From NCBI GenBank assembly GCA_964473485.1, contig CAYYPH010000001.1:65722-129721 (forward strand): a DNA stretch of 64,000 bases. The letters are read 5' to 3'. The position numbers and the translations under genes were made by a program. Source of the stretch: an uncultured Prolixibacteraceae bacterium (lineage in GTDB: Bacteria > Bacteroidota > Bacteroidia > Bacteroidales > FEN-979). Shown here in pieces: positions 19,694-25,040 of this stretch (positions are counted from its first letter, which is position 1; each line of letters begins with the position of its first letter). The notes below the pieces were generated by a model. That model was given only the letters and a program-made list of their open reading frames with translations. It had not been told where the DNA came from and made no database searches.

Positions 19694-20116
19694 TCGCTGC
19701 CTGCCTCTGTCCGTCACTACCATTCGCGGCTTGCACAAGCTTGGGCTGCCGACAGGCTTGGCTTTTCACATCTACTTTCCCTGCAGCCCAACCTTCGCCG
19801 CTCATTACCCTGGACCAGATACTACCGGCAGCATGGCAAATCCATCCTCCACCACCCTTACCCCGCCGCTGAAGAGCGCAGCCGGGTAAGCCCGGAATGT
19901 TTATTCTTCCATCCCACCATCCCACCATTCCACCATCCCACCATTCCACCATTCCACCATCCCACAATTCCACCATTCCACCATTCCACCATCCCACCAT
20001 CCCACAATTCCACCATTCCACCATCCCACCATCCCACCATTCAGCCATTCCACTACGCATACGTCTCCTGCAACCCTATTTCGGCCTCCTCCGTCGGCCT
20101 CACAAAGTTGCAGATG
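19694..20116. repeat. copy A of a large tandem duplication (423 bp) containing an 8-nt microsatellite
   Basis: Aligns by eye with 20152-20486. Shared blocks: tcgctgcctgcc, cattcgcggc, aagcttgggctgcc, ccctgcagcccaaccttcgccgctcatt, ccgccgctgaagagcgcagccgggtaag, gcatacgtctcctgcaaccctatttcggcctcctccgtcggcctcaca. Confidence 0.85.
19909..20053. repeat. 8-nt microsatellite (ACCAT[T/C]CC)n, about 18 units
   Basis: Direct reading: ccatcccaccatcccaccattccaccatcccaccattccacc... The period is not a multiple of 3. Confidence 0.9.
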
Positions 20117-20151
20117 TCTATAACTTGTTATTTCTCGGTCACACAATCCTG

Positions 20152-20486
20152 TCGCTGCCTGCCGATTCCGGAATCTCCCATTCGCGGCACCCAAAGCTTG
20201 GGCTGCCGCTGGTCACATTGGCTTATCAGGTTTTTCCCTGCAGCCCAACCTTCGCCGCTCATTGCCCTCGACCAGAATCCACCGGCAGCATTGTAAATCA
20301 AACCTCCACCACCCTTTCCCCGCCGCTGAAGAGCGCAGCCGGGTAAGTCCGGAATGTTTATTCTTCGATCCCACCACCCCACCATCCCACCATCCCACCA
20401 TTCTGCCATTCTACCATTCCACCCCGCATACGTCTCCTGCAACCCTATTTCGGCCTCCTCCGTCGGCCTCACAACGTTACAGATGC
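20152..20486. repeat. copy B of the large tandem duplication (335 bp)
   Basis: Same blocks as copy A. The 88-bp length difference is explained by the shorter internal microsatellite. Confidence 0.85.
20369..20424. repeat. 8-nt microsatellite (ACCA[T/C]CCC-type), about 7 units
   Basis: tcccaccaccccaccatcccaccatcccaccattctgccattctaccattccac. Confidence 0.85.
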
Positions 20487-21007
20487 CATTTAATATTGGT
20501 TTTCCAAAACCCGGTACGACGAGTCAGGCAACGCATTTTTACCTCGATCTGTAACCCATAACATCAGCTTGTTATTCCAGATCTCGCTCCGGCCCCCGCC
20601 GGGCGCCTCATTAACACCACGTTTTCATCCTTACAGTCTGTGGTGTCAAACCATGCCATCACCTCATCAGCAAACCACGGCGCCCGGCAGGAGCCTCCGC
20701 TCCTCTTCCATAAAAGCTGCTGTCATGAGTTACCCCAATCCTTCCCCAATCAGCCGGCACCGGTAAATGCCATGCCCTGAGATGTACGAGCAGGTCCACA
20801 ATCCCTCATCGCCATTAACCCGCCACTGAAGAGCGTGGCCGCTTAATGTCAGCCATGGTTTCAGGTAACCCAGCCTCCTCCGGCCACCTCACTCGCCCTC
20901 GTCCCTCGGGCTTCATGAAGTGGCCGAAATATATTTCTTAATATACATTTGACCATTTTAAAACTGATCTTAATCCACAGGTTGCCATTTTTTTGTAACT
21001 TAGCATC

Positions 21008-21529
21008 ATGAAGCAGCTACAAGAATCAGGACTTGATTTTGAGATTGATAAACTGACCAACTCAATCGAAAATGTCATAACCGGAGATAATTTTGCAACT
21101 GATATCTCATTGTTGATACCAAAGGATTTAACTACTGTAAGCAAAAGTAAAGGATGGTTATTTAATTGGCGAAATGAATATAAAGAACCTGCCAGAGATA
21201 TATACAAACTGACCATTGTCAATAATCCTGGTATTATTCAGTGTCTTATCAGCCTGGAAGTAAAGTCAGATCATGTATATATGCATTTAGTGGAAAGTGC
21301 TCCTTTCAACAAAGGAAAAACTAAAATGTATTCCGGAGTGCTCGGTAACCTGGTTGCTTTCTCGTGTAAACTTTCTTTTCAACGTGGTCACGCCGGTTAC
21401 GTATCATTCCTTTCAAAAACCCAACTCATTGAACATTACGAGAAAACTTTAGGCGCCACTCATTTCGGAGGCCGGGTAATGATAATTGAGACAAAAGCCG
21501 CATTAAAGCTTATTAACAAGTATTTCTAA
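21008..21529 (+). CDS. GNAT-like (acetyltransferase-fold) hypothetical protein
   Basis: 173 aa. The C-terminal half (VYMHLVESAPFNKGKTKMYSGVLGNLVAFSCKLSFQRGHAGYVSFLSKTQLIEHYEKTLGA) resembles a Bacteroidota GNAT-like family I recall from mobile contexts. The local sequence is AT-rich. Confidence 0.5.
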   Translation: MKQLQESGLDFEIDKLTNSIENVITGDNFATDISLLIPKDLTTVSKSKGWLFNWRNEYKEPARDIYKLTIVNNPGIIQCLISLEVKSDHVYMHLVESAPFNKGKTKMYSGVLGNLVAFSCKLSFQRGHAGYVSFLSKTQLIEHYEKTLGATHFGGRVMIIETKAALKLINKYF

Positions 21530-21541
21530 AGAGAAAAAGAA

Positions 21542-21706
21542 ATGAATAAAGATGAATTGGAGGATGATGTTTTAGGAGGACAAGGCCCCTTAACAATAGA
21601 AGAAGAAAAAGCACTTAGTGAATTTCTTAAGAAACGGAAAATGATAAGGAAGCCTTCTCGACTCACGAACCCAGTTGGAAAGAAACGGTCAAGATCAAAT
21701 GTCTGA
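21542..21706 (+). CDS. small hypothetical protein (54 aa, acidic N-terminus, basic C-terminus)
   Basis: Not in the ORF track (under 60 aa). Translation: MNKDELEDDVLGGQGPLTIEEEKALSEFLKKRKMIRKPSRLTNPVGKKRSRSNV. Its stop overlaps the ATG at 21699. Confidence 0.35.
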   Translation: MNKDELEDDVLGGQGPLTIEEEKALSEFLKKRKMIRKPSRLTNPVGKKRSRSNV

Positions 21707-22010
21707 ATTCGTTATTAATAAAGAACATTCAAATCTGAAATCCTGGACACAGATAAAAGACGATGTCTATGGTAAAAAGGGAACTCCCCGAAGGGATGAA
21801 CTCGATCGTGAGATAGAAGCATTTAAAATAGGATTATTAATCCGCCAGGCCAGAGAATCCCGAAAAATGACCCAGTAAGAACTTGGAAAAGTAATTTCCA
21901 AAAAAAGAAGCTATATAAGGCAATCGGAAAATCCAAATCTTATTCAAAGATACCTTCGTAAAATGATGCATCGCAAGGCCGGGGCCCTCCGGGTGCCGTC
22001 ATTTTTTTGA
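21699..22010 (+). pseudogene. XRE/HigA-type HTH antitoxin-like gene disrupted by an in-frame TAA
   Basis: MSEFVINKE...KGTPRRDELDREIEAFKIGLLIRQARESRKMTQ then TAA (21876-21878). The HTH continues in the same frame (ELGKVISKKRSYIRQSEN..) and then degenerates. Confidence 0.6.
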
Positions 22011-22066
22011 ATTTCTATTTTTCCGGGGTAAAAAAATGACCGGCAGCCTTGCCATGCACATTTTAC
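21958..22066. repeat. long imperfect inverted repeat (potential ~40-bp stem hairpin)
   Basis: The left arm gtaaaatgatgcatcgcaaggc...gccgtcattttttt (21958-22008) pairs with the right arm aaaaaaatgaccggcagccttgccatgcacattttac (22029-22066). The left arm carries an extra GC-rich insert, ccggggccctccggg. Confidence 0.6.
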
Positions 22067-22275
22067 TCCGGTAAACAGCGCCTAAGATTTTGATTTTTTA
22101 GGATACAATTTTCCTCTTAAAGTCCGGGTACCAGATGCCAATTCAGGTAGGGGAGTCCGGCGATGCAATGCAATTCGATGAATAAGCGTCTGTACGTCAT
22201 GTTGTTATGATGTGTTGGGTGGATTTGGCGGTATCTTTGCCGGACACGTAAATCCAACATATAAACCCATGTGCT

Positions 22276-22419
22276 ATGTCAACCATTCGAAAAGTATCTA
22301 AGTACCGACGTGCCGACAATGGTGAGTACACCACGAAAAAGTACGCCAAGCGGAATCCGGAAACAACCGTGAAGGAGACCGACAAGCGCGCTCCCAGGCA
22401 CAAAAGGAAAAAACGTTGA
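22276..22419 (+). CDS. 47-aa highly basic small protein
   Basis: Not in the ORF track. Translation: MSTIRKVSKYRRADNGEYTTKKYAKRNPETTVKETDKRAPRHKRKKR (18 of 47 residues are K/R). A strong terminator hairpin follows directly. Confidence 0.45.
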   Translation: MSTIRKVSKYRRADNGEYTTKKYAKRNPETTVKETDKRAPRHKRKKR

Positions 22420-22433
22420 TCTGCCATCTGAGA

Positions 22434-22465
22434 AACTCCCCGCCATCAAGCGGGGAGTTTTGTTA
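22434..22465 (+). terminator. rho-independent terminator
   Basis: aactccccgc-catcaa-gcggggagtt followed by ttttgtt. Confidence 0.65.
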
Positions 22466-22737
22466 TGGGCTATCCAGGTCCACAATACCCCGGCTCCTTA
22501 GCAAGAATTTATCCCTGGTCCCCACCTTGGCAAAAAAGGACTCCCCCACCGCATATAATCCTGGCGTATTTCAAAGCAACCCAATGAATAACTATCCATA
22601 ACGTACACATAAACAACGTGTTATGAATGGTTTTTATCAAACCGGTGGTACCTTTGTATCAGCCGGACCGTACTGAAGAAATATCAACTCCGTACTAAGT
22701 CCGCTCATCAAATTATAAACCTTTAAAACCTAATGCT

Positions 22738-23397
22738 ATGGCAATTGTTCAAAATCCGATCACAGGCAGAACCCGAAAAGCGTTCGGCACTGCCGTTTTC
22801 TCCAAGCAGTTTGGGCAGAACACCATGCGCACCAAACCTGCAGGAGTCAAGAACCCCAACACGGTGGGACAGGTTACCCAGCGTACCAAGTTCTCGACCA
22901 TCGTGAACCTGATCCGTCAGGTTTTACCCTTCATCAATGCAGCCTATACAGGCTTGCTGAAGAGTATGTCACCCTTCAACAAGATTGTGAGTCTGAATGT
23001 GAAGAACGCCTTTGCTGGCACCCCGCCGGTCCTGGATCATACCAGGCTGGTGCTGTGTGACCTCGAAGGAAGTTCGGTTTCCAACGTCGCGCTTCTCTCC
23101 CTGCCTTCCAGGACCATCGATTTCACCTGGTCGCCAAACACGACCGATCCCGACGAACTGGCCTCCATGCTTACGTTCATCCTGATCAATTGCACCACCA
23201 ACAAGGTGCTGGTGTTTGCGGATATCGAAATGCGTTCCTCCGGATCAGCTGAGATTAATGTCCCGGAAGACTGGGTTGGAGCCCAGACCGCCCTGCACGT
23301 GGTAACCCTCGACTATGCCCAGGCAGTCAGCGGGGTGCCCCGTACCATCATCAAGTTCAAAGCTGGGTGCGATGCAGCCAGTGTGGTTCAGGCCTGA
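22738..23397 (+). CDS. DUF6266-like protein with a basic N-terminal arm and a beta-rich body
   Basis: 219 aa: MAIVQNPITGRTRKAFGTAVFSKQFGQNTMRTKPAGVKNPNTVGQVTQRTKFS.., matching my memory of the Bacteroidota DUF6266 family. The gene is monocistronic and bracketed by hairpin terminators. Confidence 0.55.
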   Translation: MAIVQNPITGRTRKAFGTAVFSKQFGQNTMRTKPAGVKNPNTVGQVTQRTKFSTIVNLIRQVLPFINAAYTGLLKSMSPFNKIVSLNVKNAFAGTPPVLDHTRLVLCDLEGSSVSNVALLSLPSRTIDFTWSPNTTDPDELASMLTFILINCTTNKVLVFADIEMRSSGSAEINVPEDWVGAQTALHVVTLDYAQAVSGVPRTIIKFKAGCDAASVVQA

Positions 23398-23400
23398 GAA

Positions 23401-23434
23401 AGAAAGGCCGGGGTAACATCCGGCCTTTCTTTTC
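23401..23434 (+). terminator. rho-independent terminator
   Basis: agaaaggccgg-ggtaacat-ccggcctttct followed by tttt, starting 4 nt after the stop codon. Confidence 0.7.
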
Positions 23435-23452
23435 ACCCAATCAATACAAACA

Positions 23453-23725
23453 ATGACAGTAAAATCAACCATATTAGGATTACCGGTTCCCCAGGCCATC
23501 AGCCTGTTCACTTTCCTGCTGGCCCTCATCTCCATTTGGGTACATATGGAGATCAGGTTGGCTGAACTGAATGTTGAGCTCACCAATCTGAAACAGGACT
23601 TGATGTTCCATAAATCAGACAATGCAAAAAATTTCGATATGATCCGCACCGACATCAAGTCCGACACCAAGGAAATTCTCAAACGCATCGACGAAATTCA
23701 GATTTACCTCCGAAACAACAAGTGA
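23453..23725 (+). CDS. single-TM protein with a coiled-coil tail (lysis-cassette accessory or holin-like)
   Basis: 90 aa with an N-terminal TM (AISLFTFLLALISIWVHM) and then a heptad-like segment, RLAELNVELTNLKQDLMF. Confidence 0.45.
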   Translation: MTVKSTILGLPVPQAISLFTFLLALISIWVHMEIRLAELNVELTNLKQDLMFHKSDNAKNFDMIRTDIKSDTKEILKRIDEIQIYLRNNK

Positions 23726-23728
23726 ATT

Positions 23729-23920
23729 ATGAAAGAACGAATCTTCAACAACTGGAAAACCTCCGCGCTTGGCATCATCCTGCTGATCGCGGCCCTGGTA
23801 TTGCTTTTCATGAAAATCATCACCCTGGGCGAGTTCTCGGGCTTTTTTCCTACCATCCTCGGTCTCATCTATGTCCGCGACACCATCTTCAGGATCAAAC
23901 CATTTTCTGATAAAGCGTAG
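23729..23920 (+). CDS. two-TM small membrane protein, holin-like
   Basis: 63 aa with TM1 SALGIILLIAALVLLFMKII and TM2 FSGFFPTILGLIYV. It lies immediately upstream of a lysozyme gene. Confidence 0.5.
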   Translation: MKERIFNNWKTSALGIILLIAALVLLFMKIITLGEFSGFFPTILGLIYVRDTIFRIKPFSDKA

Positions 23921-23954
23921 TAACAATTTGTCTTCATCCACAAATCAAACCATA

Positions 23955-24467
23955 ATGGCAAACGTCAATCACCTCGCATTAAAGCTCTTCCCGATGGAAG
24001 GGCTTTTTAATTCCGATCCCCTCGATCACGGAGGCCCTACCAACCGGGGCATCACCCTCTCAACCTGGCGCAGGGTAGGGTGGGATAAAGACGGCGATGC
24101 CGACATCGATGTCGAAGATATCCGGATGCTAACCGCCGATGATGCCCTGCAGGTCCTGAAAAAACATTATTGGGATCGCTGGCGGGCCGATGAGATCAGA
24201 AATCAGAAGGTAGCCGACATTCTGGTCGACTGGCTCTGGTGCAGCGGTCATTGGGAGATTATCATCCCGCAGCGGATCCTTCGAGTGAAACCCGATGGAC
24301 TCGCCGGACCGGTCACCCTTCACGCCCTCAACAATGAGAATCCCTTCCGGCTGTTGATCAGGATCTATAACTCCCGCGTAGCATTTATTCATGACATCAT
24401 CAAAAAAGATCCCACCCAATGTCGCTTCGAGCGCGGATGGTATAACCGGTTAAATGCTTATTTGTAG
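23955..24467 (+). CDS. glycoside hydrolase family 108-type lysozyme (endolysin-like) with a peptidoglycan-binding C-terminal part
   Basis: The ATG at 23955 gives MANVNHLALKLFPMEGLFNSDPLDHGGPTNRGITLSTW. This matches the GH108 EGG-x-DP-x-D-x-GG-x-T-x-GIT catalytic motif. Confidence 0.75.
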   Translation: MANVNHLALKLFPMEGLFNSDPLDHGGPTNRGITLSTWRRVGWDKDGDADIDVEDIRMLTADDALQVLKKHYWDRWRADEIRNQKVADILVDWLWCSGHWEIIIPQRILRVKPDGLAGPVTLHALNNENPFRLLIRIYNSRVAFIHDIIKKDPTQCRFERGWYNRLNAYL

Positions 24468-24471
24468 ACCT

Positions 24472-24909
24472 ATGAAAACCGCCTTCAGATTATTCCTCAT
24501 GCTCCTGGCTGTAGTCCAAATTGGCTGCTCTCCCTCCGCCAGGTTAAACCGGTTACTCAGCCGGCATCCCGAACTGAAGTTCCCCGATACACTTTTCATT
24601 TCAGATACCATAATATTTCCCCATGTTGTGTTGGATACCCTGATCAAGCTTCACCCCGTTCAGGATACGATTGTCATGCAAAACGACCGTCTGGAAGTCA
24701 GAATTGAAAGGATTCACGATACACTCTATCTTAGGGGAAAGTGTAAAGCCGATACAGTGGTACTTCATCGGGTCATACCGGTCGAGAAAATTAAAGTCAT
24801 TAAACCGGATACCCTTGATCTTTTAATCCCCAGGATCCCCTGGCTAATTTCCGGCCTGATCTGCCTGCTTGCCTTTTTACTTGTTTTCGTCCTTAAAGTC
24901 TTCAGATAA
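24472..24909 (+). CDS. lipoprotein with a C-terminal TM anchor (unimolecular-spanin-like architecture)
   Basis: The ATG lies 4 nt after the lysozyme stop. Lipoprotein signal MKTAFRLFLMLLAVVQIGCS. C-terminal TM IPWLISGLICLLAFLLVFVLKVF. 145 aa. Confidence 0.45.
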   Translation: MKTAFRLFLMLLAVVQIGCSPSARLNRLLSRHPELKFPDTLFISDTIIFPHVVLDTLIKLHPVQDTIVMQNDRLEVRIERIHDTLYLRGKCKADTVVLHRVIPVEKIKVIKPDTLDLLIPRIPWLISGLICLLAFLLVFVLKVFR

Positions 24910-25010: not shown

Positions 25011-25040
25011 GGAAAACCGCTGTTAAGCGGTTTTCCCGTT
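25011..25040. terminator. hairpin terminator between convergent genes
   Basis: ggaaaaccgct-gtta-agcggttttcc followed by a short T-rich run (cgtt). Confidence 0.55.

Follow-up and report, generated by a model that had tools for sequence, protein, structure and literature searches.

A DUF6266 gene and a phage-type lysis cassette in a Prolixibacteraceae chromosome belong to a recurrent family of phage-derived elements in Bacteroidota

Phages of Gram-negative hosts carry lysis cassettes of holin, endolysin and spanin. A cassette of the same order, in which small membrane proteins are followed by a GH108 muramidase that also has a peptidoglycan-binding domain and then by a lipoprotein with a C-terminal anchor, is found in the block of genes described here, which lies with a non-coding left arm at about 19.7 to 24.9 kb of a 64-kb chromosomal stretch (the window) from an uncultured Prolixibacteraceae bacterium. 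In this block the cassette follows not morphogenesis genes but a single gene of unknown function, encoding a protein of the Pfam family DUF6266, and for its p90, p63 and p151 no counterpart was found among the holin and spanin families described so far. Three other kinds of described system bear comparison. The single-stranded DNA (ssDNA) phages of Bacteroidota, phiCjT23, FLiP and Cellulophaga phi12:2 and phi18:4, have genomes of 6.5-9 kb (PMC9719478, PMC11946311), and phiCjT23 is a lipid-containing temperate phage whose double-jelly-roll capsid protein is encoded after Rep (PMC9719478). Phage satellites, among them phage-inducible chromosomal islands (PICIs) of the capsid-forming kind, are small tRNA-adjacent integrative islands with an integrase and a partial virion gene set (PMC10085698; 10.1101/2025.02.11.637232). 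Type 10 secretion systems (T10SS) release proteins in a way that depends on a holin and a peptidoglycan hydrolase (PMC10847048, PMC10109510). The gene of the signal-less protein lies next to those of the holin, of a muramidase or M15 peptidase, and of a spanin. We class the block as a phage-derived integrative element with a lysis cassette, of a family that is so far undescribed. It is well supported that the family is recurrent and mobile and that DUF6266 is its signature gene, tied to tRNA-adjacent integrases, to two lysis cassettes, to the framework of a capsid-carrying lineage and to small Rep-encoding replicons.

The six genes of the block, in the order p47, DUF6266, p90, p63, GH108, p151, are as follows.

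22276-22419, + strand: p47, a basic protein of 47 amino acids (aa), with 18 K/R and an isoelectric point of 10.9
22738-23397, + strand: DUF6266 protein, 219 aa (Pfam PF19781, E 2e-27)
23453-23725, + strand: p90, membrane-anchored coiled-coil-like protein and first cassette gene, with an N-terminal hydrophobic segment and then a coiled-coil-like tail
23729-23920, + strand: p63, holin-like small membrane protein, with a hydrophobic stretch at residues 9-36, a second, weaker one and a charged C-terminus
23955-24467, + strand: endolysin of 170 aa, a GH108 muramidase with PG_binding_3 (Pfam E 8e-19 and 2.5e-13; phrog_315 endolysin, E 2.5e-31)
24454-24909, + strand: p151, ORF of a lipoprotein-type protein with a C-terminal membrane segment; likely start at 24472 (M7), signal MKTAFRLFLMLLAVVQIGC ending at Cys19

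An earlier, sequence-only reading of the window had taken these genes for a compact virus-like module that includes a complete lysis cassette; our results support that description, the cassette being of the Gram-negative kind. All six open reading frames (ORFs) are present as first described, and comparison with relatives indicates that all six are real, conserved genes under purifying selection: against the related locus L001, dN/dS is about 0.1 for DUF6266, p90 and GH108, and pN/pS for p47 is 0.15/0.48. The order DUF6266-p90-p63-GH108-p151 recurs in L001-L003 and in 38 of the 80 loci from a metagenome scan with p90, which puts the arrangement far beyond chance. The same reading had seen no replication, packaging or integrase gene within 20 kb, and this holds. 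No phage, replication, packaging or integrase genes are found within 20 kb on either side of the block, where the genes are housekeeping ones (an efflux pump, inositol-phosphate synthase, a histidine kinase, proteins sorted by the type IX secretion system (T9SS), a photolyase and transporters), and the 64-kb window has no tRNA gene and no match to an Rfam family.

The neighbourhoods of DUF6266 were surveyed in 68 loci from GTDB species genomes, and clustering of the neighbouring ORFs gave four arrangements. Group A, which comprises the window and L001-L003, has DUF6266, p90, p63, GH108 and p151. In group B (L005, L010-L017) the genes after DUF6266 encode an 83-aa membrane protein, an 88-aa protein built like p90, an endolysin of the Peptidase_M15_4 family and an anchored protein of 190 aa, and a tyrosine integrase and tRNA-Ser often lie downstream. 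Homology of p90 with its group B counterpart (c10) was considered and rejected, the similarity not being significant (E 0.13) despite the shared architecture. Group C has DUF6943, two zinc-ribbon proteins and an 82-aa protein before DUF6266, and a tRNA gene 130-240 bp after it, while group D has a J-domain protein, a 72-aa membrane protein, a 214-aa DUF6266 protein, a paralog of 480-580 aa and one or two proteins of 150-170 aa. DUF6266 is found directly upstream of two non-homologous cassettes, one with GH108 in the window, L001-L003 and 38 metagenome loci, and one with Peptidase_M15_4 in L005 and L010-L015, and because the enzymes of the two are unrelated we argue that the linkage of DUF6266 to lysis genes is selected. 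The expectation that this linkage would recur is borne out for both enzymes, but only in part, as lysis genes accompany DUF6266 in about 13 of the 68 genome loci.

Evidence of mobility comes from the right-hand side of the module. A tyrosine integrase gene lies on the opposite strand after p151 in six loci (L104, L108, L110, L112, L118, L125) and directly after the cassette, for group B, also in L073, where the whole unit, including 1.5 kb without genes, measures about 5.7 kb and has a LytTR regulator on one side and ribonucleotide reductase on the other. L139-L141 have, in sequence, an intergenic hairpin (hairpin H, listed below), DUF6266, p90, integrase and tRNA-Asp. Altogether tRNA genes of nine specificities adjoin the module in about 29 of the 43 loci scanned, and several genomes hold more than one DUF6266 copy. 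Among the options that the sequence-only reading had left for the block, an unrecognised minimal element fits best, as relatives carry the module with a tyrosine integrase by a tRNA gene and DUF6266 dominates replicons that encode a Rep protein.

Some features of these neighbourhoods are recorded here as side observations. The 150-170-aa proteins of group D (for example at L041 12248-13244 and L047 2902-3823) share with DUF6266 only a C-terminal motif, KFKAGxDLAxxVK or more broadly [KR]FKAGxDLAxxV[KQ], which one of them bears twice; it looks like a docking or targeting peptide. Defence genes stand beside some modules: L076 (1533-10657) has an Argonaute with a Piwi domain and its 1504-aa partner, together with a subunit of a type I restriction system and Fic, and L087 (4956-6553) has AbiEi/AbiEii. 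PADLOC matched none of the module proteins, and neither the J-domain protein nor DUF6943 nor the 491-aa paralog. In eight loci (L009, L025, L045, L047, L048, L053, L057, L063) the contig ends 185-390 bp upstream of DUF6266, which suggests that the non-coding region there is repeated or variable within populations and defeats assembly.

Distant paralogs of DUF6266 are also found on replicons of 6-11 kb with all genes on one strand (L067, L078, L082, L083, L092). In L078, of about 11.1 kb, the end repeats the start, and L079 and L080 are its circular permutations; L067 has 8751 bp with a 33-nt terminal repeat, and L082, L083 and L092, of 6-7.4 kb, lack a terminal overlap, so that circular signatures are limited to L067 and L078. 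The replicons encode a Rep of 349-358 aa that matches phrog_20614 (E 6e-16), Rep_trans, REP_ORF2-G2P and phrog_3419, 'rolling circle DNA replication initiation'. Their main non-replication genes are DUF6266 paralogs, two to four in tandem, one of them fused to repeats of the leucine-rich-repeat (LRR) type. Directly downstream of the paralogs is a protein of 164-179 aa, mutually homologous in three of the four replicons compared; that of L078 has a Phage_integrase match just below the Pfam cut-off (E 6e-6). Several small ORFs are present as well, together with a DUF5675 protein on L092 without informative match and, in L078, an ORF-free stretch of 1.6 kb; no Rfam family was matched. Neither Rep nor the 164-179-aa protein occurs in the window or in any chromosomal DUF6266 locus, and a small membrane protein upstream of DUF6266, common to L082 and group D, is one link between free and chromosomal forms beyond DUF6266 itself. 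These replicons may represent an undescribed group of viruses or plasmids.

The resemblance of the replicons to the ssDNA phages of Bacteroidota lies in their size and one-strand gene arrangement, in a related Rep, in the existence of integrated relatives and in hosts of the same phylum. The nearest phage relatives of Rep are those of Flavobacterium phage phiCjT23 and the 6.5-kb Cellulophaga ssDNA phages, at 23-28% identity. No homologue of the double-jelly-roll capsid, spike or other structural proteins was found, and these phages integrate by XerCD/dif (PMC9719478), whereas DUF6266 elements have a tyrosine recombinase by tRNA genes. In comparison with Finnlakeviridae-like ssDNA phages, moreover, the window copy has no Rep, and DUF6266 is FN3-like and not a jelly roll.

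A second line of evidence concerns loci that share non-coding features with the window. These features, all to the left of p47, are the following.

19694-20930, + strand: non-coding left arm, built of three tandem units, each about 420-460 bp long, and holding direct-repeat families D1-D5
19696-19836, + strand: block B1 of the left arm, repeated at 20154-20291
20514-20580, + strand: block B2 of the left arm
20674-20924, + strand: block B3 of the left arm
19909-20053, + strand: (CCATYCCA)n octamer array, 16.5 copies (Tandem Repeats Finder)
20368-20423, + strand: second (CCATYCCA)n array, 7 copies (Tandem Repeats Finder)
20930-21927, + strand: low-GC cargo insertion (GC 0.38) with p173 (21008-21529), p54 (21542-21706) and p67 (21675-21878)
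21928-22100, + strand: hairpin H, 170 nt, near-perfect and almost invariant (RNAalifold, 54 pairs, -48.6 kcal/mol)

In about 40 of the 80 metagenome loci DUF6266 is missing and the same lysis cassette, with a p90 that is 70-78% identical, closes a head module. This compact module consists of the large terminase subunit (TerL) on the opposite strand (phrog_2, E 1e-35), proteins of 413 and 449 aa, a portal that matches phrog_11226 (E 2.5e-13), and three further proteins, of 115, 158 and about 406 aa, after which the cassette follows (L129, L136, L137, L143, L151, L153, L158, L167; for example L136 1844-11540). The 413-aa and 449-aa proteins are putatively a protease or scaffold, and the capsid; tail genes are not evident in the head-type loci. 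The head module occupies the exact place of p47 and DUF6266, and blocks B2/B3, hairpin H and the cassette are common to both types, B2/B3 lying just outside TerL in L151, L153, L158 and L167. The layout of L123 and L128 is intermediate, with the blocks, DUF6266, the lysis cassette and then hairpin H. Furthermore, on the opposite strand of L033 (7208-7417) and L020 (117-305), about 290 bp upstream of DUF6266, there is a C-terminal TerL fragment that has 55-60% identity to its head-type counterpart and looks like the scar of a head-module replacement. The cassettes of the two types have at most about 72% nucleotide identity, and we therefore regard the types as old sister lineages on one framework and not as recent recombinants. 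The head-type cluster could itself be a capsid-forming satellite or a transfer-agent-like element of Bacteroidota.

The sister lineage bears on the objection that the block might be the tail end of a full prophage. Relatives of the cassette do end a TerL-portal-capsid cluster, and to that extent the objection was well founded, but no locus combines a match to the DUF6266 hidden Markov model with TerL, portal or capsid genes, and no terminase, portal, capsid or tail genes were found in the annotated neighbourhoods of L069, L073, L076 and L087-L090. We conclude that the module is not just what remains of the end of an ordinary prophage.

In the left arm, the + strand is C-rich (GC skew -0.31 to -0.37) and folds better than shuffled sequences (z -3.5), which the - strand does not; the arm has no Rfam match. 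The left blocks are conserved upstream of DUF6266 in twelve loci (L001, L002, L087, L102, L105, L106, L109, L110, L117, L118, L123, L128). The octamer arrays are present in two of the three units and absent from L001. The cargo insertion is missing from L001-L003; searches of Pfam, PHROGs, NCBIfam and PADLOC gave nothing for p173 and p54, and p67, which is possibly truncated, has a sub-threshold regulator match (phrog_1373, E 0.093). The site between B3 and hairpin H appears to be a hotspot, as in relatives it holds 0.3-3.9 kb of differing cargo: it is empty (0.3 kb) in L110 and L117 and filled with 1.9-3.9 kb in L102, L105, L106 and L109. Hairpin H occurs in about 45 loci; most of those in group A have it upstream of p47/DUF6266, and L123, L128 and the head-type loci have it downstream of the lysis cassette. 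A dispersed miniature inverted-repeat transposable element was rejected as its nature, since the window holds a single copy. Candidate roles for hairpin H are an RNA, an ssDNA origin, a pac/att site or a terminator, and the left blocks and the hairpin may act as RNA, as single-stranded DNA or as protein-binding sites.

Other conserved non-coding blocks are found upstream of the J-domain gene of group D (L006 8026-8481, with homologous blocks in L004, L018, L041, L042, L044, L050, L054 and L064). One is a hairpin with arms of about 40 bp and compensatory changes in 9 of 23 pairs, and another is a stem with a CUCCAACCACCACCACC loop, reminiscent of the CA-rich arrays of the window. There is no credible Rfam match for L027, all matches being far below gathering scores.

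The DUF6266 protein is widespread and strongly conserved. A profile search of 1.84 billion cluster representatives returned 2332 DUF6266 clusters (50% identity) at E<1e-3. Close homologues of the window protein number 319 at E<=1e-3, and among the 120 matches listed nearly all have 218-219 aa. Among 40 sequences with 56-78% overall identity, the ten N-terminal residues, MAIVQNPITG, do not vary, nor does much of the stretch up to residue 100. Across 131 family members the first 60 residues have a median of 11 K/R against 2 D/E, and the remainder is slightly acidic, so that the basic N-terminal arm is a family-wide feature. The protein has no signal peptide and no hydrophobic or membrane segment, and it is therefore presumably cytoplasmic. 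In an AlphaFold 2 (AF2) model (predicted local distance difference test score (pLDDT) 82, predicted template modelling score (pTM) 0.76) the basic, acid-free residues 1-30 are disordered (pLDDT below 50), a long helix (43-70) and a short one (79-87) form a helical hairpin, and residues 115-210 form a seven-stranded FN3/Ig-like sandwich. Thus the Arg/Lys-rich arm of the sequence-only reading was correct, while the body is not simply beta-rich, residues 43-87 being helical and residues 115-210 a sandwich. In Foldseek searches of PDB and BFVD the sandwich alone gave matches, and these are exclusively FN3/Ig-like domains, which in BFVD are FN3 domains from tail and tip-attachment proteins. With the DUF6266 alignment as profile, nothing among the PDB sequences matched at E<=10, and PHROGs, NCBIfam and PADLOC gave no match for the protein. 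Our literature search found no paper mentioning DUF6266, DUF6943, PF19781 or PF22105.

The sites that may control expression of the block are these.

22232-22239, + strand: promoter-type motif before p47, TATCTTTG, matching TAnnTTTG, 37 nt before the p47 start codon
22432-22461, + strand: terminator-like hairpin after p47, with a 12-bp stem (-27.4 kcal/mol, z -4.9), followed by UUUUGUU
22646-22737, + strand: promoter-type motif, TACCTTTG at 22649-22656, and 5' leader of DUF6266, aligned with L001-L003
23395-23435, + strand: strong hairpin between DUF6266 and the lysis genes (-26.5 kcal/mol, z -4.1)
25011-25036, no strand assigned: hairpin common to the ends of p151 and of a convergent 1097-aa gene (fold -20.5 kcal/mol, z -5.5)

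Both motif sites match TAnnTTTG, which we take to be the Bacteroidetes -7 promoter motif of the Bacteroides promoter literature. The first is kept in L001 and L002, and the promoter and leader region of DUF6266 is conserved by blastn in L102, L106, L108, L109, L114 and L117. The strong terminators proposed on either side of the DUF6266 gene are supported by folding, which reveals the hairpins after p47 and after DUF6266; a consensus terminator scan flagged none of the intergenic hairpins. The hairpin after DUF6266 is a candidate terminator or attenuator. The convergent right-hand neighbour of the block, the 1097-aa gene, is T9SS-sorted, and L003 has the same neighbour gene, at 80% nucleotide identity. 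This suggests that the block was inherited vertically with L003 and that the two loci are apparently orthologous.

L001 and 16 metagenome loci encode a homologue of p47, in each case of exactly 47 aa; it is situated 240-350 bp upstream of DUF6266 and keeps the core YRRADNGEYTT+K+AE+NPSTTVKETDK. The protein has no hydrophobic segment and no family match in Pfam, PHROGs, NCBIfam or PADLOC, and it is restricted to one subgroup of DUF6266 loci.

It is well supported that the cassette is of phage type, its endolysin matching an endolysin family of PHROGs and the same cassette closing the TerL-portal-capsid cluster in about 40 loci. The start of GH108 is most likely the ATG at 23955, the choice of the gene callers, and not 23871. 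For p90, p63 and p151, putative roles in lysis are assigned by architecture only. p90, 83% identical in L001, is the most constant cassette member: it is kept in L139-L141, where the other lysis genes are absent, and some head-type loci pair it with a different endolysin (phrog_7). The position of p63 is kept in 67 of the 80 metagenome loci, and p63 has no match to a holin or other family above threshold in Pfam, PHROGs, NCBIfam or PADLOC. p151 is kept in 47 of the 80 at 41-62% identity and has no family match in Pfam, NCBIfam or PADLOC; p90 and p151 have as their sole PHROG matches weak ones (E>0.02) to families of unknown function. With its lipoprotein signal and a C-terminal hydrophobic segment at residues 117-145, p151 resembles a unimolecular spanin in architecture. 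Phage T1 gp11 is a protein of this type.

What the family does is less certain than that it exists. We tentatively favour, at somewhat less than an even chance, the reading that the region at about 19.7-24.9 kb is one integrated copy from a recurrent family of small, virus-like Bacteroidota elements, so far undescribed, in which DUF6266 forms a particle or coats nucleic acid. Four observations make us favour such a role for DUF6266: its presumably cytoplasmic character and acid-free basic arm; a promoter motif of its own and a strong hairpin before the lysis genes; its replacement of a complete head module on a shared framework; and its position as the main non-replication gene of the Rep-encoding replicons, whose paralogs with their variable C-terminal domains would suit shell, vertex and receptor-binding roles. 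DUF6266 would be made in the cytoplasm in quantity; its arm would bind nucleic acid, and its helical hairpin and FN3-like domain would form a particle or nucleoprotein or decorate one. The lysis genes would be expressed at a lower level, by read-through of the hairpin after DUF6266, and would then open the inner membrane, the cell wall and the outer membrane to release the product. As the window copy lacks integrase and Rep, it would be an immobilised derivative that is kept by selection.

Several of our results weigh against this reading. No jelly-roll, HK97 or other capsid fold was found for the DUF6266 model in PDB or BFVD; there is no profile similarity between DUF6266 and any head-module protein; and hhalign gives probabilities below 1% against phiCjT23 gp5 and phi12:2 gp4 and of at most 5.6% against the other ORFs of both phages, on which ground homology with structural proteins of either phage was rejected. 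DUF6266 is absent from 2.9 M IMG/VR contigs, 50,697 INPHARED phage records and 72,556 PLSDB plasmids. The extreme conservation of its N-terminal 100 residues is unusual for a capsid protein and would fit better with docking on a conserved partner. The chromosomal copies carry nothing with which a genome could be replicated or packaged, in about 40 of the 68 loci, those of groups C and D, no lysis genes can be recognised, and circular contigs of the group A element were looked for and not found. Among 29 loci, no tRNA-derived att-type direct repeat marks a far element end, the few matches being short or beside the tRNA.

The more specific design seen by the sequence-only reading, a jelly-roll capsid with a genome-condensing peptide, does not stand. 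The fold is FN3/Ig-like only, profile comparisons of DUF6266 with the capsid proteins of the nearest ssDNA phages and of the head module show no relation, and p47 is dispensable in L002, where it is deleted, and in L003, where it is decayed, with DUF6266 and the lysis genes still intact. DUF6266 shares with the jelly-roll capsid proteins of small icosahedral viruses the basic disordered N-terminal arm but not the eight-stranded fold. The likeness to Microviridae that this reading implied, with their capsid F and small basic DNA-binding J, lies in a tiny polybasic protein encoded beside a larger one whose arm is basic; neither the sequences nor the folds are similar, p47 belongs to one subgroup only, and no microvirus Rep, pilot or scaffold genes are present.

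A bolder form of the virus-like reading would make DUF6266 the building block of a new FN3-based minimal virion or nucleoprotein particle of the Rep-encoding replicons, different from the jelly-roll and HK97 types, which chromosomal copies, as immobilised derivatives, still make and release by programmed lysis, packaging nucleic acid of the host or of the element much as a gene transfer agent does; we consider this rather unlikely.

It has been noted above that the DUF6266 and head types have a framework in common, and their payloads are mutually exclusive. This is what would be expected if the DUF6266 type were a satellite or defective derivative of the head-type element, which kept the framework, the lysis genes and the integrase, lost TerL, portal and capsid, and is moved in helper capsids, with DUF6266 as an accessory (adaptor, receptor-binding, decoration or capsid-redirecting) protein. 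Both types occur in the same metagenome projects (Ga0268276, Ga0247841, Ga0172369/70), DUF6266 takes the position of the last structural gene of the head type (p406), and its conserved N-terminus, variable C-termini (FN3, LRR-like) and tandem paralogs are as in receptor-binding or decoration proteins, and its FN3 matches in BFVD come from tail and tip-attachment proteins. Like phage satellites, the elements are small, in relatives though not in the window have an integrase and an adjoining tRNA gene, and hold only part of a virion gene set, and the sister lineage with terminase, portal and capsid and no evident tail genes recalls the capsid-forming PICIs. However, the identity of at most about 72% between the cassettes leaves a recent helper-satellite exchange unsupported, DUF6266 also fills Rep-encoding replicons that have no such framework or capsid gene, groups B, C and D are on other frameworks, and a strongly basic, acid-free arm is atypical of receptor-binding proteins. 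The elements also differ from described satellites in that they match no satellite marker genes and have no known helper phage. We know of no described phage satellite that carries its own lysis cassette, and none from Bacteroidota was found described in the literature searched. On balance we regard a satellite origin as unlikely.

GH108-type muramidases and M15 peptidases are enzyme types of described T10SS loci, and DUF6266, a signal-less protein encoded directly beside an endolysin and a putative holin and spanin, could on this analogy be a cargo that a subpopulation of cells frees by means of holin, muramidase and spanin, as is the case for Tc toxins and chitinases. The muramidase even matches the NCBIfam family 'holin-associated N-acetylmuramidase', but at 70.9 bits this match is far below the cut-off of 240. 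The context is different: the links of DUF6266 to integrases and tRNA sites, to replicons with a Rep and to a sister lineage that has a capsid module point to a mobile element and not to a host secretion system, most DUF6266 genes have no lysis genes nearby, and no toxin, enzyme or adhesin domain was detected in DUF6266 apart from the FN3-like fold. Lysis-dependent release of this kind therefore seems to us improbable.

That the block is merely the inert late end of a degraded phage-like element, with DUF6266 a passenger without present role, would agree with the lack of integrase, Rep, tRNA and packaging genes in the window, the loss of p47 in L002 and L003 and the cargo insertion within the left arm, but is very unlikely given five intact genes with dN/dS near 0.1, conserved promoter motifs and hairpins, dozens of intact copies elsewhere, and a block kept by the same neighbour gene in L003 though the flank has diverged to about 80% nucleotide identity.

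For the biology of Bacteroidota the consequences depend on which role DUF6266 has. A single unknown gene paired with a full lysis kit makes the block a simple and testable system. If DUF6266 proves to be an accessory protein, the loci would define a satellite-like system in a phylum where none was found described. If it is a particle protein, as we tentatively suggest, pipelines for virus detection would be blind to a widespread group of viruses or virus-like elements in Bacteroidota, and a new capsid or nucleocapsid architecture would await structural study.

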